64,000 nucleotides of DNA from a virus, in UHGV virus genome UHGV-1519562; one strand, 5' to 3'. This document shows positions 46,280 through 61,665 of this stretch, in pieces. A program made the position numbers and the translations under genes. The notes under the pieces were generated by a model. It worked only from the letters and a program-made list of their open reading frames with translations, did no database searches and was not told where the DNA came from. Numbering within the stretch: position 1 is the stretch's first letter; each line of letters opens with the position of its first letter.

Positions 46280-46627
46280 ATGAAAAAGTTCTTCTCTATC
46301 ATCGCTGTTCTGGCAATCGCTATCTCTGCTCTCACTACTTCTGCTTGCGCTCTCAACACTCCTGCTGAAAATGCCAGATACTGCGCAACAAACAGCATCC
46401 ACTATGGTATGAATACTGTTCGTCTGGTTCGCGCCACTGTTACTGCAACTCATGATGATGGATGTGTGACATTGAAAGACATGCGTGATGGCAACCTGTA
46501 CGCCATTGATGATGATGGCCTTGTGAAAGGTGAGGACGTTCTCATTGCTATTGACGACAATGCTACACCAGGTTTTGTCTATGATGACATGATTCTTGGC
46601 TTCTGGAATGGTTCTGCTCTTAAATGA
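46280..46627 (+). CDS. secreted / lipoprotein-like small protein
   Basis: Signal peptide MKKFFSIIAVLAIAISALTTSACA; GC-rich codon usage; consensus promoter/leader upstream; terminator downstream. Confidence 0.6.
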   Translation: MKKFFSIIAVLAIAISALTTSACALNTPAENARYCATNSIHYGMNTVRLVRATVTATHDDGCVTLKDMRDGNLYAIDDDGLVKGEDVLIAIDDNATPGFVYDDMILGFWNGSALK

Positions 46628-46648
46628 GCAGAACCATTTTCTTTTTTT
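46607..46648 (+). terminator. intrinsic terminator
   Basis: atggttctgctc / gagcagaaccat hairpin then T-run. Confidence 0.55.
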
Positions 46649-46733
46649 ATTTTATAAATAAATAAATGAAAAAGGTATTGACATTCTGGTTGAAGTATGG
46701 TATACTATAAATAACAAAAGGAGGAAAGATCAA

Positions 46734-46937
46734 ATGAAAAAGACTTTTGAGTTCTATGCTTGCTCACCTGTTAAGACATGGCGGAACAACTACCAGGGAG
46801 AAAGTTGGCAGTGGGCTAAAGTTCAATGGTTTCGCTTCCCTTCTGGTCTGCGCAAGTGTTTAGTCTTTCCTGATGGTCAGGCAATCAAGATTGAACTTTG
46901 TAAGGTTAAAAACAAAAGAGAGGTTAAGAAAGTATGA
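46734..46937 (+). CDS. hypothetical protein
   Basis: 67 aa; promoter TTGACA-17-TGGTATACT at 46678-46706, RBS AAAGGAGG. Confidence 0.55.
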   Translation: MKKTFEFYACSPVKTWRNNYQGESWQWAKVQWFRFPSGLRKCLVFPDGQAIKIELCKVKNKREVKKV

Positions 46938-47164
46938 AAGAGTTGTACATGATGTATAATAAACGCTATGCAACAGGTATAAGTTTTTATACAAATTATG
47001 AAACTGCTTTGTTAGCAAGATACATTGCTTGTATAAAGATATCTAAACATGAAAAAGACAATGTAATGACAGAGTTTAGCACAAAAGAAGTAAGACAAAA
47101 ATATTGTAAAGATTGGTTTAACATTCTTAATATTAAACAGTTGATGTTGGTAGGAAGGAGATGA
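46934..47164 (+). CDS. hypothetical protein
   Basis: 76 aa, start overlaps previous stop (ATGA). Confidence 0.45.
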   Translation: MKELYMMYNKRYATGISFYTNYETALLARYIACIKISKHEKDNVMTEFSTKEVRQKYCKDWFNILNIKQLMLVGRR

Positions 47165-47390
47165 AAAACTTCATCTCTTTCCTTTTGTTTAACATACTTG
47201 TTATAAACGAATGTCTTCGTTTTACAAGGCAACTTTCCGAATCAGTATACCACAAAGTCTGCTCAAAATCAATAGTCAAAATAGCTAAATTTAGAGGGAG
47301 AATTGGGATCCCGAATTGTGCAGTATGCCTATTGACCTATTGCGGCAAGTGTGTTATTATATAATTACAAAAGGAAAGGGGATAAAACAA

Positions 47391-47576
47391 ATGAAGAACA
47401 TCAAGAAGATCATTGGTGTCAAGATGGACAAAGCTAACAAGGCGATCCTTGACAAGTGGAAGGAATGGATCAAAGAAGAGGGCCGCGATGAAACCAGTAA
47501 GAATGACTTCGCTAACTATTACGCCAACTCTTATGAAGAGTATCAGCAGATTTGGGAAGTGGTTGAATGTTTGTAA
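47391..47576 (+). CDS. hypothetical protein
   Basis: 61 aa from ATG 47391 after promoter and AAAGGAAAGGGG leader. Confidence 0.5.
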   Translation: MKNIKKIIGVKMDKANKAILDKWKEWIKEEGRDETSKNDFANYYANSYEEYQQIWEVVECL

Positions 47577-47642
47577 AAAAGTCTTGACAAGAAGCTCAGT
47601 CTGTGGTATAATAAGACCATAACAAAAGAAAGGATGATTTTT

Positions 47643-48008
47643 ATGTTGAAAAAGACAGTCTACTTCTGTGAGTATTGCAGTGAGGTTTTTGAGGACTATG
47701 ACAGCTGCAACTTGCACGAGATGGAAGAAATGGCGAAGCGTTGTGAGGATAGCTTCAAGCTGTATGATAAGCTCGGCGAAGTCAAGCTCAACCTTAAGCT
47801 AATCCTGCACCTATTATTGCTATCTTGTGCGATGGTAATAAAGAAGCCGTTGAATTGCTCAAGCGCTATTTCATTAGCTTCGACCATAAAGCCCCTTCTC
47901 TTGCTCCGGGAGAAGAAGCCCTCTTGGTGCTCAATGAACGCACTGGTAACTGGTGCAATATTGATGAAGCCATTCAACAGCTTCAAGATTTGTTCTAAAC
48001 AGCAATGA
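47643..48008 (+). CDS. hypothetical zinc-finger-like protein, possibly frameshifted near 47795 (downstream part looks better in another frame ending 47997)
   Basis: N-terminal CEYC...C..H; promoter TTGACA-17-TGGTATAAT at 47584-47612; alternative frame 47798-47997 is open and protein-like. Confidence 0.4.
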   Translation: MLKKTVYFCEYCSEVFEDYDSCNLHEMEEMAKRCEDSFKLYDKLGEVKLNLKLILHLLLLSCAMVIKKPLNCSSAISLASTIKPLLLLREKKPSWCSMNALVTGAILMKPFNSFKICSKQQ

Positions 48009-48089
48009 AAAAGGAAAGTTTTGCGGCCTTCCTTTTTCTTTTATTTGTATTGTGTAAGTTTTTATTCTTAATTTGTGCATTTTTACCTA

Positions 48090-48123
48090 TTGACATCTTC
48101 CCAAAATTATGTTATTATATAAT
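48090..48123 (+). promoter_or_regulatory. about 45-bp promoter module (copy 1 of 2 near-identical copies; second at about 55852)
   Basis: ttacctattgacatcttcccaaaattatgttattatataatca versus ttacttattgacattttcccaaaattatgttattatataatca. Confidence 0.5.
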
Positions 48124-48149
48124 CAAGATAAAGAAAGGGGAAACAAAAG

Positions 48150-48482
48150 ATGATTAACAAGGAACTGTTCGACAGCCGGTACACCACAACCTACTATGAA
48201 AGCGCTTATGTGCTTCACGATGGAGACTTGACTCTCTACTATCCCAACTGCGGTTATGACCCTGAGAAAATCATGGTCTGGAAGATTACTGCTGAGGATT
48301 ACCGCTTTTATGGCAAAGGCGCTCTGAAAGAACTGCTGGAAGTTCTTTACAAGGAAGCTGCTCCTGAGTTGGTGGCTCTGGTTGATAGCAAACTCCGATT
48401 GGCAACTAACGACGAGGAATGTGCTACGCTTGTTAAGCACAAGTATCCCAACGACAAACAGCGCTACATTGACATGTGGTAA
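48150..48482 (+). CDS. hypothetical protein
   Basis: 110 aa, GC-rich codon usage, RBS AAAGGGGAAA. Confidence 0.55.
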   Translation: MINKELFDSRYTTTYYESAYVLHDGDLTLYYPNCGYDPEKIMVWKITAEDYRFYGKGALKELLEVLYKEAAPELVALVDSKLRLATNDEECATLVKHKYPNDKQRYIDMW

Positions 48483-48503
48483 AAAGTAAAGGAGCTGATT
48501 AGA

Positions 48504-48725
48504 ATGATAACAATCTTTCACAAAGCAGGTATTGCTTTCAGGGGAGAATATCTCCGGGAAGCTTGCAGGAAGAACTACGATTGGCTTACTTTAATGTATG
48601 CCGTTGAAGATTATAACCGCGCTGTGAAGCGTTACTACAAGTATGTTTCTCGTCACCACGCAGTTATCCTTAACAAATATCCTTCTGGCGATGTTATCGC
48701 TCTTGAAGAAGGAGTAATTCTATAA
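48504..48725 (+). CDS. hypothetical protein
   Basis: 73 aa, RBS AAAGGAG, terminator downstream. Confidence 0.5.
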   Translation: MITIFHKAGIAFRGEYLREACRKNYDWLTLMYAVEDYNRAVKRYYKYVSRHHAVILNKYPSGDVIALEEGVIL

Positions 48726-48750
48726 GGGCCGCAAGGCCCTTTTTCTTTTT
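48724..48750 (+). terminator. intrinsic terminator
   Basis: aagggcc gcaa ggccctt then T-run. Confidence 0.6.
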
Positions 48751-48854
48751 TGCTATATGCTTATATAGTGAAACTTCTAGGCTTCTAGCGAAAAAAAAAT
48801 AAATAAAAATTTTTTTGTTTAATTTACCTATTGACACCAAAGAAAAAGTATGGT

Positions 48855-48930
48855 ATAATAATTGCGGCGGCGCGCACACGACCATGGCTTTCCAATGCGC
48901 GCCGAAATTCTGTCAATACGCAAATTGCAC
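48855..48930 (+). repeat. GC-rich stem-loop intergenic element, copy B (directly downstream of a promoter)
   Basis: cggcgcgc ... gcgcgccg stem (48858-48894), then aaattctgtcaatacgcaaattgcacaa box. Confidence 0.5.
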
Positions 48931-49092
48931 AAAAATTTAGAGGAAAGTTTGGTGATTTTGCCCAGAAGTATTCATCCCGAAATGGTATTTGTTTATAAAA
49001 AGTATAGCGGCAAAACATTATCAAAATTGATTATTGAATTTCTTAAAAAATTTTGTTATAATAATTACAGAAAACAAAAGGAGGTCAAAAGT

Positions 49093-49254
49093 ATGGCTGA
49101 ATACCGTGACTGGCTGGTAGTTTTCCCCAATGGTGGGCAGATACATTTTGATAACAAGGGTATCGCAATGCAGAACGCAACCCGCAAGAAAGGCTTTGTC
49201 TATGAGTGTCATCTGGAAGAGAATGGGAATGAAACTCTCATTCATATCTTTTGA
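49093..49254 (+). CDS. hypothetical small protein
   Basis: 53 aa from ATG 49093 after promoter and AAAAGGAGG; the longer track ORF from 48862 runs over promoter and repeat. Confidence 0.5.
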   Translation: MAEYRDWLVVFPNGGQIHFDNKGIAMQNATRKKGFVYECHLEENGNETLIHIF

Positions 49255-49269
49255 TAGGAGGTATTGCGT

Positions 49270-49449
49270 ATGAAGCAGACTTATTCTATCTATCATGCAG
49301 GCGATGAAGAAATTATCGGGCCTTTTGATTCCTTTTCATTGGCAGAGGATTTCTTTCATAGGTTAGCTCAGTATGCTACTACAATGTATTACTTGGTAGA
49401 TGATTCTACTGGTGAAATTCTTCTTGATATTGAAGAAATTAAGGCTTGA
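49270..49449 (+). CDS. hypothetical small protein
   Basis: 59 aa from ATG 49270, RBS TAGGAGG. Confidence 0.5.
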   Translation: MKQTYSIYHAGDEEIIGPFDSFSLAEDFFHRLAQYATTMYYLVDDSTGEILLDIEEIKA

Positions 49450-49507
49450 CATTTGGGCCTTACCGTGGTATAATTACCATAGAAACAAAGGAAAGAGGTT
49501 GATACTT

Positions 49508-49963
49508 ATGACTGACAAAATGTTGGCTTTTGATATGGACGGCACTATTGCTGACCTGTATGGGGTTAATGGTTGGCTGTCTAAGCTGCGGAAGGAAGAT
49601 GCAAGCCCTTACCTGGAAGCTAAACCCATGTGGGATGTGGATAAGCTCAACGAGCTTATCAATAAACTAAAGCAGGCTGGTTGGGAGATTGCAATCATCA
49701 CTTGGCTTTCTAAAGAAAGCAGCCCTGAGTATGCAAAGACTGTGCGAGAAGCTAAAAAGGCTTGGCTCTTGAAATGGGGTTTCCCCTATGACCACTTTCA
49801 TGGTCTAAAGTATGGAGCCACTAAAGCGGATGCTGTTCGTAGAAAAGCATCTAAGGCAATTCTTATTGATGATAATAAGAAAGTTCGTGACAGTTGGCAT
49901 TTAGGAGAAACTGTTAATCCTGAAACTTGTAACATCATTGATTTTTTGGCTTCCCTGCTTTAA
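49508..49963 (+). CDS. HAD-superfamily 5'(3')-deoxyribonucleotidase-like hydrolase
   Basis: Motif I AFDMDGTIADL (DxDGT) and motif IV ILIDDN; promoter and AAAGAGG leader upstream. Confidence 0.65.
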   Translation: MTDKMLAFDMDGTIADLYGVNGWLSKLRKEDASPYLEAKPMWDVDKLNELINKLKQAGWEIAIITWLSKESSPEYAKTVREAKKAWLLKWGFPYDHFHGLKYGATKADAVRRKASKAILIDDNKKVRDSWHLGETVNPETCNIIDFLASLL

Positions 49964-50045
49964 GCAGGGAGTCAAAAAAGTTCTTGACAAATGAGAAAAA
50001 ATCTGGTATAATGAGTACAGAAATTAAGAAAGAGGTAGATGCAAC

Positions 50046-50741
50046 ATGAGTATTGACAAGCGCAGACATTACGTTCTGCTTCTGGACACTGAGACAGCAA
50101 ACACCATCACTGACCAAAAAGGCCGATTAGACATGACCTCAGTTCTTGTCTATGATTGCGGGTGGTGTGTTATGGACACAAGAGGAAATATCTATAAGGA
50201 ACAATCCTTTGTTAATCGAGATATTTTCTTTGATGAAAGTGAGCTTATGAAATCCGCCTACTACGCGGAAAAGATTCCCCAGTATCTGGAAGATATTCGA
50301 CAGGGCATCCGACAAGTAGCTAACACTTACCAGATTCGACAGACTATGCTTGCAGACATGGCAGAATATGGTATTACAGAAGTAGTTGCCCACAATGCAA
50401 GATTCGACCTGAACGCATTGAATTTACTTCAACGCTGGACTACCAAAAGTAAATACCGCTATTGGTTCCCCTATGGTACCGATTTTTGGGATACTCTCAA
50501 AATGGCAAGAGATGTTATTCTAAAGATGCCTACCTATAAAAGGTTCTGTGAACAACACGGTTTTTTAACCAAAACTGGTAAACTCTCAGCAACAGCAGAA
50601 AATCTGTATAGATTCATCACCAAAGACCCTACTTTTCAGGAAGAACATAAAGGTCTTGACGATGTGCGGATTGAGCGGGAGATTATGATTTACTGCTATC
50701 GGCAAAAGAAGAAAATGCGGAAAAAACTTTTTGAAAATTAA
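50046..50741 (+). CDS. DEDDh (DnaQ-like) 3'-5' exonuclease
   Basis: Exo I LLLDTETA, Exo II VAHNARFDL, Exo III HKGLDDVRIERE; promoter at 49984-50012. Confidence 0.7.
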   Translation: MSIDKRRHYVLLLDTETANTITDQKGRLDMTSVLVYDCGWCVMDTRGNIYKEQSFVNRDIFFDESELMKSAYYAEKIPQYLEDIRQGIRQVANTYQIRQTMLADMAEYGITEVVAHNARFDLNALNLLQRWTTKSKYRYWFPYGTDFWDTLKMARDVILKMPTYKRFCEQHGFLTKTGKLSATAENLYRFITKDPTFQEEHKGLDDVRIEREIMIYCYRQKKKMRKKLFEN

Positions 50742-50749
50742 AAAACCGC

Positions 50750-50778
50750 TTGACAAAACAAAAGGAAAATGATATAAT
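50750..50778 (+). promoter_or_regulatory. promoter with about 85-nt structured leader
   Basis: TTGACA-17-GATATAAT; leader has a hairpin (gaggg...ccctc) and the motif tagggtagcgacctaccgcacagaaagg. Confidence 0.5.
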
Positions 50779-50862
50779 ATAAGAGAAGTGAGGGAAAGAA
50801 AACCCTCTCCACTTCCTTAACAATTAGGGTAGCGACCTACCGCACAGAAAGGAATTGATATT

Positions 50863-51219
50863 ATGACTAACGAGAAGAAGATTACTAACAAGGGCGCCCT
50901 TCAGTATGTTCTGGACAACTGCGAGATTCCTGCCGACGTTCGTGCCAAGATTGAGATTCTGCTCCATCAGCAAGAGAACAAGAGCCGTGGTAGTGGTAAG
51001 CCTACTGCAACTCAGACTGAGAACGCACGTCTGATTGAAGTGATTGCCGACACTCTGCCCAAGGGCGAGGCTTTCACCATCTCCGACATTACCAAGACCA
51101 TTCCTGAGCTGAACGGCTTTACCCCTCAGAAGGTTGGCCCCATGCTCAAGAAGCTGGTTGAAACTGGCCGAGCCACCCGTGACACTAACAAGGGCAAGGC
51201 ATATTATACTATGGTGTGA
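50863..51219 (+). CDS. hypothetical protein, paralog family 1 (copy 1)
   Basis: 118 aa; shares TQTEN..LIE and IPEL.GFTPQKVGPM motifs with 54200..54616; GC-rich codon usage. Confidence 0.6.
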   Translation: MTNEKKITNKGALQYVLDNCEIPADVRAKIEILLHQQENKSRGSGKPTATQTENARLIEVIADTLPKGEAFTISDITKTIPELNGFTPQKVGPMLKKLVETGRATRDTNKGKAYYTMV

Positions 51220-51229
51220 TAATTGAATA

Positions 51230-51258
51230 AAGAGGGGCATTAAGCCCCTCTTTATTTT
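51230..51258 (+). terminator. intrinsic terminator
   Basis: aaagaggggc atta agcccctcttt then T-rich. Confidence 0.5.
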
Positions 51259-51278
51259 CTCAAAAAGGATGGTGTTTA

Positions 51279-51641
51279 ATGATAGATGAAGCTAGGGTTA
51301 AACATCTTCAAAAGGTGTTAGACCTTGATAGAAAACAAGCTTTAGCGGTTATTGCCGATGATGAAGCAATAGATAAAGGTGCAGACCTTTTCCCACTTAC
51401 TGATGAACAAAAGAAAGTAGAAAAGAAAATGCGGTTATCCGGCAAAGAGAAAGGCAAGTACACTATGAATGCTCCCCGACAGCGCAAGGTTGACAATGAC
51501 AAACATCGCTTGATTGAGATTATTGCGGAATCTCTTGAACAGCTTGAAATTGAAACTACCATCAATAACCCAGAGCGAGAAATTGAGATAGTTTTTAATG
51601 AAAGACGTTTCAAAATTACATTAAGCGCTCCTAGAAAATAA
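51279..51641 (+). CDS. hypothetical protein, paralog family 2 (copy 1)
   Basis: 120 aa; C-terminal NPEREIEIVFNERRFKITL matches NPERQIAFSVDNNAFELTL of 54647..55030. Confidence 0.6.
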   Translation: MIDEARVKHLQKVLDLDRKQALAVIADDEAIDKGADLFPLTDEQKKVEKKMRLSGKEKGKYTMNAPRQRKVDNDKHRLIEIIAESLEQLEIETTINNPEREIEIVFNERRFKITLSAPRK

Positions 51642-51645
51642 TAAC

Positions 51646-51683
51646 AAAACCGGCTTATTTTTTATAAGCCGGTTTTGTTTTTT
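51646..51683 (+). terminator. intrinsic terminator
   Basis: aaaaccggcttat / ataagccggtttt then T-run. Confidence 0.6.
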
Positions 51684-51699
51684 GTCTAATACTTCTTAA

Positions 51700-51800
51700 T
51701 GACAAATGTTTGGCGGCCCGCGCATGGTCAAGCGCTGCCGCATTTCAATTATACCAGGTAATCCGACTTTTGTCAATGGGCAAACCGCACAATTATTTAA
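51700..51800 (+). repeat. GC-rich stem-loop intergenic element, copy C
   Basis: tttggcggcccgcgc atggtcaa gcgctgccgc, then aattatacc and ttttgtcaatgggcaaaccgcacaa box; promoter follows. Confidence 0.5.
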
Positions 51801-51894
51801 CCTTTTGTTTTCCCAAAATTGGTGATTCTACCTATTGATTTTTTTATTAAAATTTTATATAATATAATTGTTCCAAGGGAAAGGAGAAACAAAA

Positions 51895-52089
51895 ATGAAG
51901 ATTAATTACAAATCTTTCAGCGTGGAAGTTTTTGGTGAGAACATTTGGGGCCAAACCTATCTGAACAGAGTGGGCTTTGATTCTGAGGAAGAAGCCGATA
52001 AGTTTATTGAGTCTCTGGAAGAGGAAGAAGGAGTTTATTCGGCAATTAAAATTGTAAATACAAGTTATAATTTCAGAAAAAACCCTTGA
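51895..52089 (+). CDS. hypothetical small protein
   Basis: 64 aa from ATG 51895 after TTGATT-17-TATAAT promoter and AAAGGAG. Confidence 0.5.
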   Translation: MKINYKSFSVEVFGENIWGQTYLNRVGFDSEEEADKFIESLEEEEGVYSAIKIVNTSYNFRKNP

Positions 52090-52146
52090 CAAACAAACCA
52101 AGACGTGTTATAATAAATACAGAAATTAAGAAAGAGGTTGACAATT

Positions 52147-52257
52147 ATGAATGAAAATAAGACTACTCCTTGGTATATCTATCAGCCGGGCAAATGGAGC
52201 TACTTCTTATTTCTAGTTCCCTTGATTCTTCTCATTCTTATCTTTATAAGTACCTAA
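52147..52257 (+). CDS. small hydrophobic peptide (single TM helix), below the ORF-track size cutoff
   Basis: 36 aa MNENKTTPWYIYQPGKWSYFLFLVPLILLILIFIST with consensus promoter/leader (aatacagaaattaagaaagaggttga). Confidence 0.45.
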   Translation: MNENKTTPWYIYQPGKWSYFLFLVPLILLILIFIST

Positions 52258-52292
52258 AAGATACTTATAAAAATCTGGATTGTCTTCAAAAA

Positions 52293-52312
52293 GGCTTGAC
52301 AAACGTCAAGCC
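52293..52312 (+). promoter_or_regulatory. palindromic operator overlapping -35 (GGCTTGACAAACGTCAAGCC)
   Basis: Perfect 20-bp palindrome containing the TTGACA box; second copy CTTGACATACGTCAAG at 52750-52765. Confidence 0.5.
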
Positions 52313-52348
52313 GAGTGGTATAATAATAACAGAAAGAGGTTGATATAA

Positions 52349-52492
52349 ATGATTTCTACTATTGCTCTGGCTTCCCTGGCTGCCATTATGATGGTGAAGG
52401 TGTTCGTTGCGGTTGAGCGTGAGGATTACCGCAAAATGTTTGTCAGCGGATTTGAGTTTGCTCTTCTGCTTCTGACTTTAGCTAATATTTAA
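52349..52492 (+). CDS. small membrane peptide
   Basis: 47 aa MISTIALASLAAIMMVKVFVAVER...FEFALLLLTLANI; RBS and promoter. Confidence 0.45.
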   Translation: MISTIALASLAAIMMVKVFVAVEREDYRKMFVSGFEFALLLLTLANI

Positions 52493-52505
52493 GGAGGTAA
52501 ATATA

Positions 52506-52754
52506 ATGAGAATTTATTCCATTAAACATCTGTTCGACAAAGAAGTTGCTGGTTTTTATCGAGAAATGAAAGAAAGCGTTGAAACAAAAGAAGAAGTAGA
52601 AAATGCTGTTTATCTGGTAACGGGTATGCAGGTTATGGCAAGTATTATTGCCGAAGGAAGTGATGAAGAGGTTCTTGCCATTGAACATGAAACTTGGGAT
52701 TATTGGGTTCCAAAGTTTAAGAAACTTCTGGAAAATCTTCCTGAAAAGGCTTGA
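52506..52754 (+). CDS. hypothetical protein
   Basis: 82 aa, RBS AAGGAGG. Confidence 0.5.
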   Translation: MRIYSIKHLFDKEVAGFYREMKESVETKEEVENAVYLVTGMQVMASIIAEGSDEEVLAIEHETWDYWVPKFKKLLENLPEKA

Positions 52755-52810
52755 CATACGTCAAGTTCTATGATATAATAAAGCCATAATAAAGAAAGGA
52801 AGTCGATACT

Positions 52811-53011
52811 ATGACTAAAGAGGAATTCTTAGACACTTTGCAGGAGGTCGGCTATGAATGGAGCAGAACGCTCAATGAGCACAAGTATGACTACTCGGAT
52901 TTCGAGTGGAAGATGCTTGGTTGGTTAGCTGGTGAATTGATTGACCATTTCGACCAAGCAATTGATTCAATTCGTGATGAACTTCAGGAGGAGGAGGAAG
53001 AGGAAGAATGA
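52811..53011 (+). CDS. hypothetical acidic protein (poly-Glu tail)
   Basis: 66 aa ending EEEEEEE; promoter with palindromic -35 at 52750. Confidence 0.5.
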   Translation: MTKEEFLDTLQEVGYEWSRTLNEHKYDYSDFEWKMLGWLAGELIDHFDQAIDSIRDELQEEEEEEE

Positions 53012-53256
53012 GAATGATAGAAAAGATTGAGAGATTCTTTCTTCTTGATGAAGAAGAAAGAACAATTCTCAAGAAAGCTGGAAGCATTTTGTATGACATG
53101 GGAGAAGCTATTGATAGCTCTGGAAGAGTTTCCTTATTCTATGCAAAATTTACTGAGCCGATTGAAAAAATCCGAAACTACGATGAAGGAAACTTTTATG
53201 ACCTTTCAGATTTATTGACTGTTCTTTCTAAAAAAGAAAGAATTGATATTGAATAA
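53008..53256 (+). CDS. hypothetical protein
   Basis: 82 aa, overlapping start. Confidence 0.45.
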   Translation: MRMIEKIERFFLLDEEERTILKKAGSILYDMGEAIDSSGRVSLFYAKFTEPIEKIRNYDEGNFYDLSDLLTVLSKKERIDIE

Positions 53257-53271
53257 AGAAAGGATAGATAC

Positions 53272-53430
53272 ATGGAAAAGTATTGTTTTGTAGTTATGAC
53301 TACTGACGAAGGTATTGATGCTCCAGAGATGGTTTATCTTAATAAAGAAGCGGCTATAAAAGCGGCTGAGGCTCTTCAAAACGAAAGAGAAGAAGATTGT
53401 TGGGTAGAAAAAGTACAGTTTATTAAATGA
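53272..53430 (+). CDS. hypothetical small protein
   Basis: 52 aa MEKYCFVVMTTDEG...; RBS AAAGGA; terminator downstream. Confidence 0.4.
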   Translation: MEKYCFVVMTTDEGIDAPEMVYLNKEAAIKAAEALQNEREEDCWVEKVQFIK

Positions 53431-53438
53431 TATTAAAA

Positions 53439-53464
53439 ATAAGGGCCTTTGGCCCTTATTTTTT
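53439..53464 (+). terminator. intrinsic terminator
   Basis: aataagggcc ttt ggcccttatt then T-run. Confidence 0.6.
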
Positions 53465-53520
53465 ACTTGACAGATTTTTCTTTCTATGTTATAATAACAA
53501 TAGAAAAGGAGTGAAGCAAA

Positions 53521-53724
53521 ATGACAGATTTTGCAAGAGCTGAAATTCTTCTTAAAGCTTTACAGGAAGCAGGAAGATATATGCGGAAATATTTACCCGC
53601 AGAAATGCCTCTGGGTGAAGATGCCGATATTACAAGATACTGTTTGATAAATGGTAATCAAGACCCAGAAGGCTCTAAGTTTGTAGAATACTTCATTCTT
53701 AAAGCATTTGACAGTTACAAGTAA
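53521..53724 (+). CDS. hypothetical protein
   Basis: 67 aa; promoter, leader and RBS AAAAGGAG. Confidence 0.5.
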   Translation: MTDFARAEILLKALQEAGRYMRKYLPAEMPLGEDADITRYCLINGNQDPEGSKFVEYFILKAFDSYK

Positions 53725-53747
53725 GGGCTAAAAGCCCTTACTTTTTT
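53721..53747 (+). terminator. intrinsic terminator
   Basis: gtaagggct aaa agcccttac then T-run. Confidence 0.6.
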
Positions 53748-53754
53748 ATTTTTA

Positions 53755-53880
53755 TATTTGTTATAAACAAAAGTCAAGTGATAGCAAAGTTTGGCGGCGC
53801 GTTGATGGCTGACATGCGCCGCAATTTAATTATACCCCAAGCCACGCCTTTTGTCAAGAGTTAAACTGCACAAAATCTAT
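53755..53880 (+). repeat. GC-rich stem-loop intergenic element, copy D
   Basis: ttgttataaacaaaagt..tttggcggcgcg ttgatggctgacat gcgccgc aatttaattatacc ..ttttgtcaag..gcacaa. Confidence 0.5.
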
Positions 53881-53940
53881 TTGAGGAAAATCCCGCTTTT
53901 TGTATAATTTGCCTATTGCAATTTGGGTGAAATCTGATAT

Positions 53941-54110
53941 AATAAATAATGTCAGGAGGGAGTAGCCCAAGAAATCCTAGGGCGGCCGACCTGTGAGAAA
54001 GTATAGGAAGTAAACGAAATACATCAAGTGGTAAGTCTTATATCATGTGGTAATTGTTATTGCCCAACATGCTCTGGAAGCCGTAAATCTTGTGAAAAGT
54101 TTGCGAAACC
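53941..54110 (+). ncRNA. promoter-proximal transcribed non-coding segment (leader or small RNA) with the conserved tagggcggccgacctgtgagaaag motif
   Basis: Between promoter about 53905-53940 and promoter 54113-54141; no ORF with start and RBS; holds a Cys-rich 48-codon frame without RBS. Confidence 0.3.
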
Positions 54111-54199
54111 TCTTGACAAACCCCAAGAAACGTGCTATAATAAGCATGTAATCAAGAGAAGGACAAACTCTTAAAAACCAGAAAGCGAGATAGGTGTTT

Positions 54200-54616
54200 A
54201 TGGAAAATACTAACAAGAGAATTACTAAGCGTGAGCGTTTCCAGTCTCTGATTGAGCTGGTGGAACTGTGCGAAGGCCGTGAAGACGAAGGCTTTGACTT
54301 TGAGGGTCTGACCGATTTCCTCTCCAACGAGATTCGCCTGCTGGAAGCTAAGAAGGGTTCCAATTCCCGCAAGCAGACTGTTCGCCAGACTGAGAATGAG
54401 CATTTTAAGGCTCTGATTGCTGAGCAGTTGACCGAAGAGGGCATGACCATTGCAATGCTCCGCAAGGCCATTCCTGAACTGGAAGATTTAACTCCCCAGC
54501 GTATTGCCCCTATGTGCAAGGCTCTTGTTTCTGAGGGCATTGCTTACAAGGATACCCACAAAGGTATTGCCCACTTTTACAAGGCGCAGGCCGTGGTAGA
54601 AGAGGAAGAGGGCTAA
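54200..54616 (+). CDS. hypothetical protein, paralog family 1 (copy 2)
   Basis: 139 aa from ATG 54200; paralog of 50863..51219; ends EEEEG with stop inside a hairpin. Confidence 0.6.
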   Translation: MENTNKRITKRERFQSLIELVELCEGREDEGFDFEGLTDFLSNEIRLLEAKKGSNSRKQTVRQTENEHFKALIAEQLTEEGMTIAMLRKAIPELEDLTPQRIAPMCKALVSEGIAYKDTHKGIAHFYKAQAVVEEEEG

Positions 54617-54646
54617 GGCCCTCTTCCCTAGAGGGGAGGTATATTT

Positions 54647-55030
54647 TTGGACAAAGCAAAAGAAGCAATCGCAAGAATCCAAGCCGGCATCAAGTGCAGT
54701 TATGAAAAAGCAGTAGAAATCTATAAGGCAGATTGCGAGGTTGATAAAGGCATCCCGCACGAATGGGATTTGACCGAGGAACAGCAAAAGGTAGCAAAGA
54801 AATACACCATTACCGGACAACACACCAAAAAGCATGACCGCAAGACCCCTATTAAAAGAGAAAGGAAGGAAAACCCCACTAAGGCAAATTTGATTGCGGA
54901 ACTTGCAGGTTTTCTTGAATCTTTGGGGATTTGTGACGTAAAAATTGCAAATCCTGAGCGACAGATTGCTTTTTCTGTTGATAATAACGCCTTTGAGCTG
55001 ACTTTAGTTCAGAAAAGGGCCAAAAAGTAA
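54647..55030 (+). CDS. hypothetical protein, paralog family 2 (copy 2)
   Basis: 127 aa; paralog of 51279..51641; RBS GAGGGGAGG. Confidence 0.6.
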   Translation: MDKAKEAIARIQAGIKCSYEKAVEIYKADCEVDKGIPHEWDLTEEQQKVAKKYTITGQHTKKHDRKTPIKRERKENPTKANLIAELAGFLESLGICDVKIANPERQIAFSVDNNAFELTLVQKRAKK

Positions 55031-55087
55031 AGTTTTTAGCCCTTTTCACTTAAAAAAGAGCTAATTTTGACGAAAAAGGTGATGTAA

Positions 55088-55432
55088 ATGCAACAAAAGA
55101 AAGAGTATTTGTATGTAGGCCACTATTTTGATATAGAGGGTAACTACATTCTTAAAATAGGTACTACTAATGATTTAGCCAGGAGACAGCAAGAGCATAC
55201 CAGAAATTATAAGCATTCACCTAAGTTTACTATGCCGAAATCCGCAAAGTTTGTCTATGATTGGTATCTGCCTTTGTCTAAATATTCGACTTTGCGGTAT
55301 GAGGATAAGAATCGTGCGGCATGGCAGGAATCTTCTATCGGTGAATTTGTCCGCAATGACAGATTTTGCTGTAAGCAAAAGCCCAAGAAAGTAAAGGTTA
55401 CTATCCGCAAAACCTATGAGATCGAGCTATAA
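55088..55432 (+). CDS. GIY-YIG / T5orf172-like domain protein
   Basis: YLYVGHYFDIEGNYILKIGTTNDLARRQQEH resembles the GIY-YIG/T5orf172 core. Confidence 0.45.
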   Translation: MQQKKEYLYVGHYFDIEGNYILKIGTTNDLARRQQEHTRNYKHSPKFTMPKSAKFVYDWYLPLSKYSTLRYEDKNRAAWQESSIGEFVRNDRFCCKQKPKKVKVTIRKTYEIEL

Positions 55433-55445
55433 GGAGGAAGAGAAC

Positions 55446-55667
55446 ATGATTGTTATTAAAAAGCAATGCGAGGTTCGCTTATCCCAAGAAGAAATTGATC
55501 GTCTTGAGCAAGCCTCTGACATTCTTAATCAAATTTGGGAGGTGATGTCTGCTAGTAGTTATATTGGCAAATACGAAACCATTGATACCGCAAAAGTGGG
55601 AGAAGCATCAGATATTTTGCAAAACTTAGCAGAGATCGGCGAAAATATCGTAATTGAAGATGCTTGA
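55446..55667 (+). CDS. hypothetical acidic protein
   Basis: 73 aa from ATG 55446, RBS AAGGAGG. Confidence 0.5.
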   Translation: MIVIKKQCEVRLSQEEIDRLEQASDILNQIWEVMSASSYIGKYETIDTAKVGEASDILQNLAEIGENIVIEDA

Positions 55668-55675
55668 TTATTAAA

Positions 55676-55706
55676 GGATAGTGGTTATTAACCACTATCC
55701 TTTTTT
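55676..55706 (+). terminator. intrinsic terminator
   Basis: ggatagtgg ttattaa ccactatcc then TTTTTT. Confidence 0.6.
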
Positions 55707-55719
55707 ATCCCTATACTTG

Positions 55720-55830
55720 TTATAAGCAAAAGTAAAGTAATAACAAAACTCGGCGGGCCGCGCTTGGTGGATGCGGCCCGAATTCGCGTCAATATACATT
55801 TTCCACAATTTTTCTGCTTTTGATTTGTAC
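55720..55830 (+). repeat. GC-rich stem-loop intergenic element, copy E
   Basis: cttgttataagcaaaagt..cggcgggccgcg cttggtggat gcggcccg aattcgcgtcaatatac..ccacaa; perfect 8-bp stem cgggccgc/gcggcccg. Confidence 0.5.
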
Positions 55831-55987
55831 AATTTTACTTATTGACATTTTCCCAAAATTATGTTATTATATAATCACAAAAGGAAAGGAGATTTAAAAA
55901 TTTCAAAAAAAAAATAAAAAAAGGTCTTGACAAACCAGGGCAAAGATGCTATAATGAATACAGAAATTAAGGAAAGAGGTTGATAGT

Positions 55988-56263
55988 ATGAATGAACGCA
56001 GAGACTTCATCGCAAAGAACTGGGGTGAGGATGTTCTTGAAGCTATTGATAGCTGTGAGCCGTTAAACATTACCTTTGGTCAGTTTTTGGACAAGTGCGT
56101 TGCTTGCGGTGGCAACTGGGACGGTATGCTTCTAACTGGCCTGAAGAAGTTGCGGCCTGAGATTTGGGAAGCCATTCCCCAAAATATGGGTCTTTATGCT
56201 TGGCAGTGCATCTGCAACACTTTAATTCTTGCTGGTGTAGTTATGGAAGAAGAAGAGGGCTAA
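55988..56263 (+). CDS. hypothetical Cys-containing protein
   Basis: 91 aa; ends EEEEG with stop inside hairpin gaagagggc taaaaa gccctcttc; promoter TTGACA-17-TATAAT at about 55929-55957. Confidence 0.55.
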   Translation: MNERRDFIAKNWGEDVLEAIDSCEPLNITFGQFLDKCVACGGNWDGMLLTGLKKLRPEIWEAIPQNMGLYAWQCICNTLILAGVVMEEEEG

Positions 56264-56296
56264 AAAGCCCTCTTCCATAGAGAAAGGAAGGTAGAA

Positions 56297-56578
56297 ATGG
56301 AAATTAGAAAACCTACGAACTGGTTGAATGCTAAAGGGATGCTTGACAAAACACTACAAGCAAGATCTACAGTAATCACTGAAGCCCTTGGGCGAATTAT
56401 GTTTAATCTTCTAAATGCCGCGGAAGAAGGAAAATTTGCTACTACTATTAATCTTCGAGAAGATACAAAAATTATTACTCAAATACTTGAGGAAGCAGGC
56501 TATAAGGTTCAATTTCTTAAACCAAATGGTGAATACTCACAATATATTGTTTGCTGGGAAAAGGAGGATGAAGAATAA
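56297..56578 (+). CDS. hypothetical protein
   Basis: 93 aa, RBS AAAGGAAGG. Confidence 0.5.
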   Translation: MEIRKPTNWLNAKGMLDKTLQARSTVITEALGRIMFNLLNAAEEGKFATTINLREDTKIITQILEEAGYKVQFLKPNGEYSQYIVCWEKEDEE

Positions 56579-56772
56579 TGATGAAAATCAAAATTGTTGA
56601 CCGCTATAATGGCGATTTCGCGAAGTTTGATTCTTTGCAGAAAGCCTATGACTACTTCATGGACTATGACAAAGAATGTGAGGGAGATTGGTGGCCATTG
56701 ATTACTATTGATGGAGCTTGGGTTCCTCTGGAAGAGTTCTTTGTGATGTGTAAAGAAAGGGGGTGTAAGTAA
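56578..56772 (+). CDS. hypothetical protein (tandem paralog A)
   Basis: 64 aa MMKIKIVDRYNGDFAKF... Confidence 0.5.
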   Translation: MMKIKIVDRYNGDFAKFDSLQKAYDYFMDYDKECEGDWWPLITIDGAWVPLEEFFVMCKERGCK

Positions 56773-56885
56773 TGATGAAAATCAAAATTACTGAACTGTA
56801 CAAAGATGATGTGGCGGAATTTAAGTTTCCGCCAGAAGCATGGGCTTATTTTTGCTATCGGGAAAAGGAATCTAAAGGAAAATGA
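56772..56885 (+). CDS. truncated tandem paralog B of the preceding gene
   Basis: 37 aa MMKIKITELYKDDVAEFKF...; DNA repeat taatgatgaaaatcaaaatt at both starts. Confidence 0.4.
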   Translation: MMKIKITELYKDDVAEFKFPPEAWAYFCYREKESKGK

Positions 56886-56963
56886 TTCCCATTGATATTC
56901 ATCAATAGAAAGATGATATCACCTGAAACGTTGCATAAAATGTGTAGAAAGGTGGGTATTTAA

Positions 56964-57431
56964 TTGTCTTTGCTCTTGTTATTCATTGGTCTTTCTATTG
57001 CCAATGTGGTTTTTTCGACAATCAAAAGCATTGTAACTATTAACGGCACACCATTTTCCGCAAGCATGATTTCTGCTCTGTACTATGGTTATTATAACAT
57101 AGTTCTTATTTACACAGTGGCGGATTTCCCTTTGTGGCAGAAGGTATTAGTTACCTTTGGCTGTAATCTGGTTGGCGTGTATGCGGTTAAGTGGGCGGAA
57201 GCAAAAGGAAGAAAAGAAAAGTTGTGGCGAATTGAGGTTACTGTCCCCGGTGAATTTACAAAACAACTTCACGAAAGACTAAACCCAATTCCGCACAACT
57301 ATATTGAAAATGTAGGTAAATATTCAATTTTTAATATTTACTGTGGTACACAAATGGAGAGTAGTCAAGTCAAGAAAATTTTGGTGGATTACAATGCCAA
57401 ATACTTTGTGACAGAAACTAAAGAACTCTGA
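56964..57431 (+). CDS. membrane protein (two to three N-terminal TM helices plus soluble domain)
   Basis: 155 aa, TTG start; strong terminator downstream. Confidence 0.5.
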   Translation: MSLLLLFIGLSIANVVFSTIKSIVTINGTPFSASMISALYYGYYNIVLIYTVADFPLWQKVLVTFGCNLVGVYAVKWAEAKGRKEKLWRIEVTVPGEFTKQLHERLNPIPHNYIENVGKYSIFNIYCGTQMESSQVKKILVDYNAKYFVTETKEL

Positions 57432-57459
57432 GAATACTCAGAGTTCTTTTTTGTTTTTT
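57421..57459 (+). terminator. intrinsic terminator
   Basis: aagaactctgag aata ctcagagttctt then T-run. Confidence 0.65.
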
Positions 57460-57511
57460 CTAAAAAATTATGTTATAATATATATAGAAATTAAGGAAAG
57501 GAGCTTTTCTA

Positions 57512-57628
57512 ATGACCTGTGAATTATTAAAGGCACTTGCGGTGATTATTGAATACTGTTTAAAGCAGGATAATTACAAAGTTTGTGTTATGCGTGATTT
57601 CTGTTCTAAGATGCCTTGTGAGTGGTAA
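57512..57628 (+). CDS. small Cys-rich peptide (38 aa), below the ORF-track cutoff
   Basis: MTCELLKALAVIIEYCLKQDNYKVCVMRDFCSKMPCEW with consensus TATAAT / leader / AAGGAAAGGAG upstream. Confidence 0.45.
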   Translation: MTCELLKALAVIIEYCLKQDNYKVCVMRDFCSKMPCEW

Positions 57629-57714
57629 ATTACTTTAAAGATTTTAGAGATAGAAAGGCCCATTTTAGGGTCGAAATTTCGCACGTCTAGGTCATCAAAA
57701 AAAAATATCTGGAT

Positions 57715-57915
57715 ATGTTGAAAACTGAATTTGCCAGAAAGCTGGACTCGACTGGTCGATTAGTTATTCCTTCTAAGCTAAGAGATTATCTAGGAATGGA
57801 AACCGGCCAGTTGTTTACTTTTTATGTTCAAAAAGAAGAAAATGGAGATGTGTATTTGTGTGTGAAGTGTCCTAGTAATAAAATAAAATTTACTTTTGGT
57901 GAAAATGCCGATTGA
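57715..57915 (+). CDS. AbrB/MazE (SpoVT-AbrB) family DNA-binding protein
   Basis: ARKLDSTGRLVIPSKLRDYLGMETGQ matches the AbrB N-domain signature; no obvious RBS. Confidence 0.6.
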   Translation: MLKTEFARKLDSTGRLVIPSKLRDYLGMETGQLFTFYVQKEENGDVYLCVKCPSNKIKFTFGENAD

Positions 57916-57940
57916 CATAAGGCTGGTTTTATGGTATACT
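57912..57940 (+). promoter_or_regulatory. consensus promoter driving a non-coding GC-rich region
   Basis: TTGACA, 17 nt, extended -10 TGGTATACT. Confidence 0.55.
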
Positions 57941-57946
57941 ATATAT

Positions 57947-58091
57947 AAGGAGTGGCGGGCTGTGGACAGTGGTCACAGCCCGAAATCCCCTTTCCACTAG
58001 CATATGGCGATTTTTCTAGACTTCTAGCGACCCTTCATATGGCCGGGGTTTTTCCCGAAAGTGGCTCACCCGCTCGGAAAAAATTTTTTTT
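57947..58091 (+). ncRNA. candidate structured small RNA (GC-rich, about 145 nt)
   Basis: Perfect stem gggctgtg/cacagccc (57957-57981), ccgggg and gcggg/cccgc pairing, ends in a hairpin plus A/T run; no ORF with usable RBS spacing; GC far above local background. Confidence 0.4.
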
Positions 58092-59335: not shown

Positions 59336-59400
59336 AATAAGTCATCCTTTGGATGACTTATTTACTAAGGAATAATAAATCGACCTTTGGTCGATTTATT
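59336..59400. promoter_or_regulatory. twin 27-bp perfect palindromes (operator-like)
   Basis: aataagtcatcc ttt ggatgacttatt and aataaatcgacc ttt ggtcgatttatt, 11 bp apart. Confidence 0.5.
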
Positions 59401-59578
59401 ATTCCATTAACTTTTCTCTCTCACTTTCAATTTTCCCTTCAGAAATTGTGAGTTCCATTCCCCAATTTTTTCCAAATGAAAATTCAAAATAACCACTCCC
59501 CTATATCCGCAATTGAAAATATTAAAAAATTATTATATAATATATATAGAAAAACAAAAGGAAAGGAATTAAAAATTT

Positions 59579-60115
59579 ATGTCTACTTATAAGATTAATG
59601 ATTGCTGTAACGCCTCTACTGCCGAGCTTAACTCCTCTTGTAACTGCAAGACTACTATGAAGTTTGAGGATTATATCATGGATGAGCTGCGCAAGGGCAA
59701 GTCTATGGATGAGATTATGAAGTATATCTCTGAGCGAGTCAATGCCGTGGAGTCTACTTTTAAGGCAGAGCAGAATAAGAAGAAGAGTTTTTGGTTGGTG
59801 AAGACTCCTGTTGAGGGTGATAGAGATTTCATTTTTGGTAATCTGCATGTAAAGATTAATGATGCTCTTGTTCATTTGAGTAATGGTAAGATTACTACTG
59901 AGGATTTTATTATTCTTTTTATTGAGGGTCTTTATCAGATTGCTCCTGCTATGCGCCCTATGCTTGATGAGATTAGTCTTGATGATGATAGTATTAGTCT
60001 TTTGACTGAAAGCATGGATAAGGTGAATAAGCTTTTCTCTGTTGCTAAGGCTTTTAGCAATGAGATTGATGATGACGCAGAAAGAATTAATAAGTTTTTG
60101 GATTCTCTACTGTAA
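59579..60115 (+). CDS. hypothetical protein with N-terminal Cys cluster
   Basis: 178 aa; DCCNASTAELNSSCNCK near the N-terminus; consensus promoter/leader; terminator downstream. Confidence 0.55.
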   Translation: MSTYKINDCCNASTAELNSSCNCKTTMKFEDYIMDELRKGKSMDEIMKYISERVNAVESTFKAEQNKKKSFWLVKTPVEGDRDFIFGNLHVKINDALVHLSNGKITTEDFIILFIEGLYQIAPAMRPMLDEISLDDDSISLLTESMDKVNKLFSVAKAFSNEIDDDAERINKFLDSLL

Positions 60116-60133
60116 AAGGGGATAACCCCTTTT
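60114..60133 (+). terminator. intrinsic terminator
   Basis: aaaagggg ataa cccctttt. Confidence 0.55.
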
Positions 60134-60236
60134 ACAGAGGTTGAAAATAAGCGAAAATTGAAGATTGGTGAATACATTAAGCGGGAATTAAAAAATTGCA
60201 TAGTGAGTTAGATGAGTGTTGCGCAGAGCACATCTC

Positions 60237-60390
60237 TATTTTTAATTATTTTATCTATATTTTATCTATATTTTAATTATTTTTAATAAAAAGCACATCT
60301 CTATTTTTAATTATTTTTAATTATTTTATCTCTATTTTTAATTATTTTAAGATATTTTAATTATTTTTAATAAAAAGCACATCTCTCTAA
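60237..60390. repeat. AT-rich tandem repeat array (iteron-like)
   Basis: Units starting gcacatctct at 60237, 60293 and 60376, filled with sub-repeats tttttaattatttt and ttatctatatttta. Confidence 0.6.
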
Positions 60391-60694
60391 TTCGTAAACC
60401 CCTTCCTTTAATCTTCTTTATTTCCATTGAAAAAATAACTTTTAAGGTGATTTTAAATGAATAAAATAGTAATTTTCCCCACTAAGCCATTGCAAAAAAT
60501 CTTTCGATGAAGAAAAACGTTATATCACGAACCAACCGAGAGAATAAACATAAATACACCAATCCCATTCTACTAATGCAATTAATTTCCATTCTAAATA
60601 ATTAATTCTTAAAGACTTCTCAAAATGAGAAGTCTTTATTTTTTTAAAAAAATATTATATAATATATATAGAAATTAAGAAAGGGTTGAAAAAT

Positions 60695-60889
60695 ATGCGG
60701 GATGCACTATTTGGCGCTTATGCAAAACATGAACAAGAGAAAAAAGAAATTATTCAAATGATGGTTGCGGATTTGCGGGAAGGTAATACTTATTTCTCCT
60801 ATGGGTTCGATGATGATTTTTCCGAAGAAGAAGTCACGGAAATGATTAAAACCGCAAAGTCTATTTATAATGAATGGAGATATAGATAA
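60695..60889 (+). CDS. hypothetical protein
   Basis: 64 aa from ATG 60695; consensus promoter/leader. Confidence 0.5.
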   Translation: MRDALFGAYAKHEQEKKEIIQMMVADLREGNTYFSYGFDDDFSEEEVTEMIKTAKSIYNEWRYR

Positions 60890-61173
60890 TGAATATTGAT
60901 GCCTATATTAACGAATACTTTGCCTATAATCCCAATGCAAGATATGTTCACCTAAATTTCCGCAATCACTACACAACCCTCGACCAAATTCGCCAAATCG
61001 CCAAAGAATACACTTACCACGGTTGGAGTTCTGTTATCGGCGAAACCTATAATTCTGCCTATACAGACCTTTGGATGTTTTGGAATAAAGCTCTTTATCA
61101 ACACTGCAAAGATTCTGCAAAACCTTTTAAGACTTGCGATCGCTACTATTATTATACGGAGGTAGATAATTAA
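60889..61173 (+). CDS. hypothetical protein
   Basis: 94 aa, overlapping start. Confidence 0.5.
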   Translation: MNIDAYINEYFAYNPNARYVHLNFRNHYTTLDQIRQIAKEYTYHGWSSVIGETYNSAYTDLWMFWNKALYQHCKDSAKPFKTCDRYYYYTEVDN

Positions 61174-61382
61174 TGATGTACTATACTGCTGAATGGGTTT
61201 TTGACGATAAAACGCAAACTGACACTGGCCTAATTTCCGCCAATAATATGCGGGAAGCCGGTGAATGGGCGCAAAGCTTCTACGGTGATGATCTTATTTC
61301 CATTTGCTTTACTCCACTTGAAGACCCTTTTATGTTTCCTGACAAAGCCACCGCAGAAACTATTTTAAATTCTCAAGTTTAA
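61173..61382 (+). CDS. hypothetical protein
   Basis: 69 aa, overlapping start. Confidence 0.45.
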   Translation: MMYYTAEWVFDDKTQTDTGLISANNMREAGEWAQSFYGDDLISICFTPLEDPFMFPDKATAETILNSQV

Positions 61383-61665
61383 AGGAGATTATAATGGATA
61401 AATGGTATAATATTAATAAATAATTGTTTTTACATAACAGAAAAAGAATTAATTACTAATTATATACATTGGAACTATCATTTTGGTTTTACCATAAATA
61501 TTAATAAGGAGAAAAATATATGAAGAAAATCTTAATTGGACTTGGGATTCACTTATTATTGAACCAATCGCAGTTTTCTGGATATCATATTTCTTTGGCT
61601 GGATTGCTTCTTTTGTAATTGGTAATTCTCTTTGCTACGCCCTAAATGCTGCTTTTACCAAAGAT

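Follow-up and report, generated by a model that had tools for sequence, protein, structure and literature searches.

The non-coding direct repeats at positions 60227–60386 form an array whose best-conserved property is the helical phasing of its T-tracts, i.e. predicted curved DNA. The window, the whole stretch of 64,000 nucleotides that was analyzed, comprises positions 1–64000 of a 130,331-bp metagenomic siphovirus contig of an uncultured gut phage (sample, JGI metagenome 3300045988). Phased A/T-tract DNA is a known means of bending DNA at promoters and origins, and the array is a new instance of an already known kind, phased A/T-tract bent DNA with VNTR-like behavior. Because its place and bend are kept while its copy number changes between identical genomes, the array is likelier to be a control or architectural element than a proven origin, and we favor, with a probability of roughly 0.4, a control region of curved DNA that precedes the next operon, an operon decayed in this genome.

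Repeat organization and helical phasing of the array

The boxes of the array are in one orientation. The box AGCACATCTCT is found in exact form at 60227, 60292, and 60376 only in the 64-kb window, with spacings of 65 and 84 nt; when up to one mismatch is allowed there are four matches in the 64 kb, three of them inside the array, compared with 0.99 expected. Unit 1 (60227–60291, + strand) is made up of the box and 54 nt of phased T-tracts; in unit 2 (60292–60375, + strand, 84 nt), the box and its phased T-tracts are joined by a partial box, ATCTCT, lying internally at 60328. The terminal box AGCACATCTCT (60376–60386, + strand) is the fixed right border of the array. Written as an oligonucleotide, the box form is AAAAGCACTTCTCTATTTT. 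The shorter motif TTTTAATTATTTT is present in six exact copies within 130 bp (60240–60367), and its 14 matches in the window at up to one mismatch (4.9 expected) are a number reached by no shuffle. Within the array TTTTTAATTATTTT occurs four times and TTATCTATATTTTA twice, and TCTCTATTTT is absent from the rest of the window on both strands, making it unique to the array locus. The nested periods resolved by TRF are 65 nt, with a score of 200, 31 nt, and 10 nt, the last in 13 copies. The three boxes and sub-repeats described in an earlier, sequence-only reading are thus real by TRF, a tandem-repeat analysis such as that reading had itself proposed as a check, and by the exact and one-mismatch counts. 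Its unit starts of 60237, 60293, and 60376 were right for the second only, being off by 9 and by 1 for the others, as GCACATCTCT starts at 60228, 60293, and 60377.

The composition of the array is extreme. AT content reaches 90% over 150 bp, the maximum of the 64-kb window, in line with the AT-richness that had been claimed, and the + strand of the whole array contains 87 T, 53 A, 16 C, and 4 G, the top strand switching from purine-rich to pyrimidine-rich at 60226. No open reading frame longer than 36 aa is present in the array, and a tRNA scan of it found none. Candidate small open reading frames of 24–26 aa inside the array were rejected, the relatives' sequences, read by eye, being out of frame or without a start codon. 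CRISPR arrays consist of repeats of 23–47 nt with unique spacers of similar length between them. Here the material between the boxes is itself repetitive AT-rich sequence, so a CRISPR array was rejected, and the sequence-only reading had come to the same view from the lack of unique spacers.

The array contains 12 T-tracts positioned 9–11 nt apart, corresponding to one helical turn, so that several tracts of at least four bases recur at the 10–11-bp distance that defines phased A/T-tract DNA. The tract starts are phased at 10.5–10.7 bp with a Rayleigh statistic of 8.6–9.1, the highest value of all 160-bp windows on both strands of the 64 kb (runner-up 4.7), and the phasing value of the array was reached in 0 of 5000 shuffles. 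This statistic is parameter-free, unlike the curvature values, which come from our own wedge-model script and depend on its parameters. By that prediction, a check the earlier reading had also suggested, the array is intrinsically curved and ranks second for curvature among the 150-bp stretches of the window (top 0.2%). The most curved 150 bp by the wedge model lie at 54977–55138, where phased A-tracts come after a terminator and before an open reading frame starting at 55089; the homologous spot of a distant relative (L151, 2200–2300) has phased A5-tracts too.

Genomic setting of the array

Genes for a 2864-aa tape-measure protein, a portal, and a phage sigma factor are present in the window together with a split terminase-like gene, and its structural PHROG families are those of ~140-kb Enterococcus siphoviruses. 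The closest named phage, phAss-1, is distant (portal 40% identical), and unlike phAss-1 the window has no sign of stop-codon recoding. The terminase-like pieces (37435–38892 and 40374–41678) are separated by an HNH/NUMOD homing endonuclease reading frame (39140–39988), which suggests an intron or other insertion in the large terminase gene (37435–41678). At 1367–3012 a reverse-transcriptase reading frame (RVT_1, E = 3e-14) is directly followed by a DUF4376 reading frame and adjoined by tail genes, a layout that resembles a diversity-generating retroelement; no template/variable repeat pair of 50–60 nt or more was found within 1–16.5 kb. Approximately 400 nt of non-coding DNA (45850–46260) precede a block of small genes, and GC content jumps from 0.29 to 0.38–0.40 over 46000–58000 and drops back at 58 kb. 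Placing a genome end near 46 kb, by rough synteny with phAss-1, is speculative. A small early reading frame at 57715–57915 matches a PHROG annotated as the antitoxin of a toxin-antitoxin system (E = 4e-8).

The array is situated within a long block of small + strand early genes. Near-identical strong promoters are found on the + strand at 57470, 58214, 59532, 60654, 62990, and 63796, and this family, TTGAAA-17-TATAAT-ATATATAGAAA, with six copies compared with 0.08 expected, delimits the early transcription units. The unit upstream of the array begins with the family member at 59513–59541 (+ strand), which likewise continues ATATATAGAAA, and contains a 178-aa reading frame (59579–60115, + strand) that belongs to no Pfam or PHROG family and is the left neighbor of the array in all relatives. 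A structure search with this protein was precluded by the poor quality of its AlphaFold model (pLDDT 54). The reading frame runs into a perfect 12-bp hairpin, CTGTAAAAGGGG ATAA CCCCTTTTACAG (60110–60137, + strand), that has no separate T-run and was not called by the terminator scan. Its stem is kept by paired changes in the relatives (AAAAGGGG/CCCCTTTT versus AAGAGGGG/CCCCTCTT), and because a separate T-run is missing the hairpin is probably a weak terminator or an RNA end-stabilizer. Between hairpin and array lies a purine-rich spacer (60138–60215, + strand) of degenerate GAGAATTGAAGAT-like repeats, and the 89 nt from 60138 to 60226 contain 25 G and 6 C. In the related IMG/VR contig (L001), the sequence left of the array (6577–6645) holds three exact tandem copies of the 20-nt GATAAATGAGAATTGAAGAT, of which the window has a degenerate version, indicating that the left spacer is repeat-prone as well. 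The fixed left border is a conserved GC-rich near-palindrome, GTGTTGCGCAGAGCAC (60216–60231), which overlaps the first box; it reads GTGCTGCGCAGAGCAC in most relatives and has the general form GTG(C/T)TGCGCAGAGCAC.

To the right, the conserved non-coding flank (60387–60456, + strand) holds TAATTCGTAAACCCC, the 26-mer CTTTATTTCCATTGAAAAAATAACTT at 60416–60441, and the ribosome-binding site AAGGTGA at 60444–60450, and ends AAGGTGA-N6-ATG. TTGAAAAAATAA is common to the 26-mer and to the −35 regions of the early promoters, and a TTGAAA in an early-promoter-like context lies 40 nt downstream of the array, with no −10 element after it. A promoter search found none of canonical form beside the array on either strand, and no canonical −10 element is located between the array and the ribosome-binding site; minus-strand promoter matches inside the array are weak (9/12), as AT-rich DNA would give. 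Comparison with the sequences upstream of late genes revealed no motif in common with the array. Beyond the flank, a 17-codon stub and collinear fragments (60457–60609, + strand) are the decayed remnant of a 163-aa reading frame of the relatives, and the next reading frame of the relatives, of 136 aa, is wholly deleted. The decay spans 60445–60640, with several internal deletions between the fragments, and the ribosome-binding site and first 8 codons are intact; in the IMG/VR relative the remnant of the downstream gene differs and is longer. A strong intrinsic terminator (60610–60638, + strand; 13-bp stem, then T7) closes the unit, and the next early promoter core (60654–60674, + strand; TATAAT at 60658–60663) serves a 64-aa reading frame (60695–60889). 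The array had been described as lying between a terminator and the next promoter, which holds in that a hairpin is present on the left and the next consensus promoter follows ~250 nt downstream; however, the hairpin lacks a T-run and was not called as a terminator, and the gene remnant intervenes before the promoter.

This setting would also accommodate a role at the RNA level, in which the array is transcribed as a long U-rich leader or spacer that serves as a protein-binding site or governs how stable the downstream message is or how it is translated. Transcripts would reach it by reading through the weak hairpin or would start at its left border. Read-through from the 59513 promoter is plausible because the hairpin has no T-run, the T-tracts are on the sense strand, and a conserved leader and ribosome-binding site directly follow the array. 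However, folding of the sense-strand RNA is unremarkable (z = −1.4, mostly due to the 60110–60137 hairpin; antisense z = −2.45), Rfam gave no match for the array even at E = 0.1, the array sequence is unconserved apart from the box, and a 10.5-nt periodicity belongs to duplex DNA rather than RNA, making an RNA element very unlikely.

Conservation and turnover among relatives

The 178-aa protein has 25 homologue clusters, and relatives of this phage were seen in at least 10 independent metagenome assemblies. Complete arrays were recovered from eight distinct relatives, at the same position and with the same left and right borders, and the array is present down to ~70% identity of the neighboring protein. 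Borders, box, and phasing are shared by 8/8 distinct relatives. The box, AARAGCAC(T/A)TCTCTATTTT of ~19 nt (AARAGCACTTCTCTATTTT), is present in every relative in 2–5 copies and one orientation (L019 and L023 have two boxes only); its length ranges from ~14 to 19 nt and the spacing between boxes is irregular, at 19–106 nt. The phasing resultant is 0.70–0.98 in all eight relatives, reached by different architectures, namely units of 10/11 nt, 31-nt units of 19 + 12 nt, and steps of 21–24 nt, and 8/9 arrays rank within the top 1% of their locus for predicted curvature. The flanks are better conserved than coding DNA, the 26-mer being invariant in eight genomes, and beyond the right flank the relatives carry the 163-aa and 136-aa reading frames intact.

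The interiors of the arrays, by comparison, are unalignable even where the flanking proteins are 93–98% identical. A contig from another sample (L023, k119_93108) lacks exactly the 84-nt unit 2, yet matches the window at 100% identity over 7,268 bp left of the array and at 99.65% right of it, and in the IMG/VR relative two assembly ends overlap within the array and differ by one 31-nt unit, so that unit number is polymorphic in both, as in a VNTR or minisatellite. The sequence-only reading had proposed that an array absent or hypervariable in length among otherwise identical genomes with no replication phenotype would speak against it; the length is indeed hypervariable, between identical genomes (L023) and between the IMG/VR ends, so that half of this objection applies, a replication phenotype being beyond what sequence can reveal. 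Eight independent contig ends fall inside the array, and three long contigs (the window's own, L005, and L007) cross it unbroken. Assemblies break at the array because it is hypervariable.

A DNA search of 59400–61400 against 50,697 phage records gave no match, exact-pattern scans of IMG/VR with the box or the flank gave one related contig only, a search of IMG/VR with the phosphoesterase gene gave the same single contig, and a metagenome scan with the alignment of the 178-aa protein gave two further short loci. Scanning a genome collection for TCTCTATTTT-N18-48-TCTCTATTTT returned scattered chance matches in all phyla, and the scan yields no clue to the host because none of them had the family flanks. 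No outstanding phased array was found in four relatives more distant by the phosphoesterase gene or in Enterococcus phage VRE9_3, indicating that the phased array is not universal.

This turnover raises the question of whether the array is a neutral, self-perpetuating AT-rich minisatellite in a dispensable spacer, with slippage making and erasing units and the phasing a by-product of a ~10–11-nt sub-unit. As at bacterial and phage VNTR loci, unit number is polymorphic, between near-identical genomes and within one assembly, and the locus is an assembly breakpoint with its eight contig ends; the unalignable units, the decay of the neighboring genes, and the lack of such an array in more distant relatives are likewise consistent with neutrality. 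Unlike VNTR loci, however, the array retains its borders, box motif, and helical phasing across diverged relatives. All family members seen carry it between fixed borders and with the same box, and its phasing is kept by several unit architectures, which one slipped unit cannot explain. An unrelated, equally phased array also occurs once in phAss-1, where such sequence is unexpected from a composition of 44.5% GC. We therefore regard a neutral minisatellite as rather unlikely.

Possible functions of the array

The intergenic space containing the array is the sole possible promoter site for the downstream reading frames and is without the consensus promoter of the neighboring early units. Because that promoter, present at every neighboring early unit, is missing, the downstream unit appears to be differently controlled, as the arrangement suggests. 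In the favored model, the array would be a cis-acting DNA element rather than a gene, intrinsically curved and very easily melted, placed in a control region bounded on the left by the weak terminator hairpin and on the right by the ribosome-binding site of the next early/middle operon. The bend and the boxes would organize a nucleoprotein complex that sets transcription of the downstream unit, involving contacts of the RNA polymerase α-subunit or other upstream contacts and/or a putative phage or host DNA-binding protein. The array would evolve through slippage or through unequal recombination among its own repeats, so that unit number and sequence would turn over fast, and selection would retain borders, box, and helical phasing at 10.5 bp.

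In low-GC bacteria and their phages, phased A-tracts located upstream of promoters act in this manner, as at Alu156 of Bacillus phage SP82 and the plc promoter of Clostridium perfringens. The array resembles these cases in having runs of at least four T (or A) spaced ~10.5 bp apart over 100–200 bp, a predicted bend, and a non-coding position ahead of a transcription unit. In contrast to them, no recognizable canonical promoter adjoins the array in the window's family, and the array adds a specific repeated box and a hypervariable copy number. Several observations stand against a control region. A canonical −10 element between the array and the ribosome-binding site is absent on both strands, the polarity of the T-tracts is opposite to that in phAss-1, and unit 2 is lost in L023 without visible consequence. 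The array also persists, with freshly duplicated perfect copies, in two lineages with decayed downstream reading frames, which is unexpected if its sole job is to serve those reading frames.

A comparable array is present in phAss-1, which comes from the human gut and is predicted to infect Clostridia; the phAss-1 record begins at an end predicted by PhageTerm (PMC10607447). The opening of the record is located ~2 kb beyond the phAss-1 amidase gene. Eleven phased T5-tracts occupy record positions 123,965–124,085 (OQ749652; 32965–33085 of our locus L021), with Z = 11.3 compared with 4.8 for the runner-up, making the array the single outlier of a 136-kb genome of 44.5% GC; predicted curvature within its 45-kb locus also peaks there. 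An unannotated 1.4-kb gap within a small-gene block holds the array, which is not mentioned in the published description of the phage (PMC10607447). Directly downstream of it, ~12 nt from its end and on the minus strand, the strand of the neighboring genes, is TTGACT-17-TATAAT with a TG extension (11/12 match), so that the array occupies about −20 to −140 relative to a near-consensus promoter. This arrangement is that of a classical upstream curved activator. The two phages thus each carry one outstanding phased T-tract array per genome, in non-coding DNA of related long-tailed gut siphoviruses, and by rough synteny both arrays are ~12–14 kb (9–11%) inside the early region. The phAss-1 array nevertheless has no sequence similarity to that of the window, consists of its own units (GACGATTTTTA), lacks the TCTCT box, and has A-tracts rather than T-tracts on the sense strand, and no homology was detectable between the flanking proteins of the two arrays.

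The sequence-only reading had proposed a replication origin or a protein-binding array. A binding array is plausible given the recurrent, locus-unique box, but an origin specifically was unsupported. If the array were an origin, an initiator would bind at the boxes, and the 90%-AT phased region would serve as the DNA-unwinding element; in a variant, replication would be primed by transcription as in T4 ori(uvsY) or T7, a promoter-like conserved element being followed by the AT-rich unwinding stretch. The one-orientation direct repeats together with the most meltable DNA of the window (90% AT over 150 bp, as for an AT-rich unwinding element), the adjoining conserved near-palindrome, the switch from purines to pyrimidines on the top strand at 60226, and the conserved position across the family are all consistent with this role. 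Origins of the λ type combine direct repeats with an AT-rich unwinding element, and iteron origins have at least three repeats of ~17–22 bp in the same orientation at regular spacing, usually of about two helical turns. The oriL and oriR of SPP1 likewise consist of direct repeats together with an unwinding element that is AT-rich (PMC6316719). As in SPP1- and λ-type origins, boxes of the same orientation lie beside extremely AT-rich bent DNA in a single copy per 64 kb, but the array differs in having no initiator gene nearby, irregular spacing, as few as two boxes, a unit lost in an identical genome, and no skew signal. The bind locus of the pMV158 double-strand origin, in which three 11-bp direct repeats bound by the initiator have an intrinsic bend of ~50° (PMC1851628), offers a second parallel to the three exact 11-nt direct repeats, intrinsically bent DNA, and nearby GC-rich inverted repeat seen here. 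The pMV158 repeats, however, are contiguous, 84 bp from the nick-site hairpin, and beside repB, whereas those of the array are 65 and 84 nt apart, with no Rep or nickase gene and no rolling-circle features.

Further evidence weighs against an origin. No replication family (Pfam, PHROGs) was found among the 178-, 210-, 64-, and 94-aa reading frames or the relatives' 163- and 136-aa reading frames, although remote homologues could escape such searches, and no replication module is present in the 64 kb or, by precomputed Pfam matches, in the next 10 kb. A search for a DnaA-box cluster found none, and there is no GC-skew inflection at this array or at that of phAss-1, although phage skew is dominated by transcription. 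When compared with iteron origins, the array has neither regular spacing (19–106 nt, with copy number down to two) nor a cognate initiator gene, and the 84-nt unit is missing from the otherwise identical L023. Because a replication phenotype is unreadable from sequence, and given the AT-rich composition and the SPP1 and pMV158 precedents, the origin proposal is weakened only and not refuted, and we consider it doubtful.

A signal for DNA traffic, i.e. a packaging or terminase site, a genome end, or a T5-like pause site at DNA entry, could account for the eight contig ends within the array, and the rough synteny with phAss-1 that puts both arrays ~12–14 kb into the early region is in keeping with such a signal. 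Variable low-complexity repeats are, however, expected to break contigs anyway, and three long contigs run through the array. The terminase and portal genes (35.4–41.7 kb) are at least 19 kb away, whereas a pac or cos site would lie beside terminase genes or at mapped genome ends; such a signal is highly improbable. Quite improbable, too, is a dedicated bent-DNA module, maintained by selection once per genome in the clade and acting on the DNA molecule rather than on one promoter, whose sequence seems to have emerged separately in the window's family and in phAss-1. Such a module might be a transcription-primed replication start, or a T5-like stop or pause that delays entry of the rest of the genome until the first early genes are expressed.

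If the array is the favored curved-DNA control region, it would be the single control element in the early region that is clearly non-genic and constrained by selection, in an apparently widespread family of uncultured 130–140-kb gut phages. The array accounts for the assembly breaks of these phages at this position, its unit number could serve as a strain marker, and the 320-nt region could be used in origin or promoter assays if a host is found. Its sequence turns over within strains but helical phasing and a short box are retained, which would be a clean natural example of selection on DNA shape.
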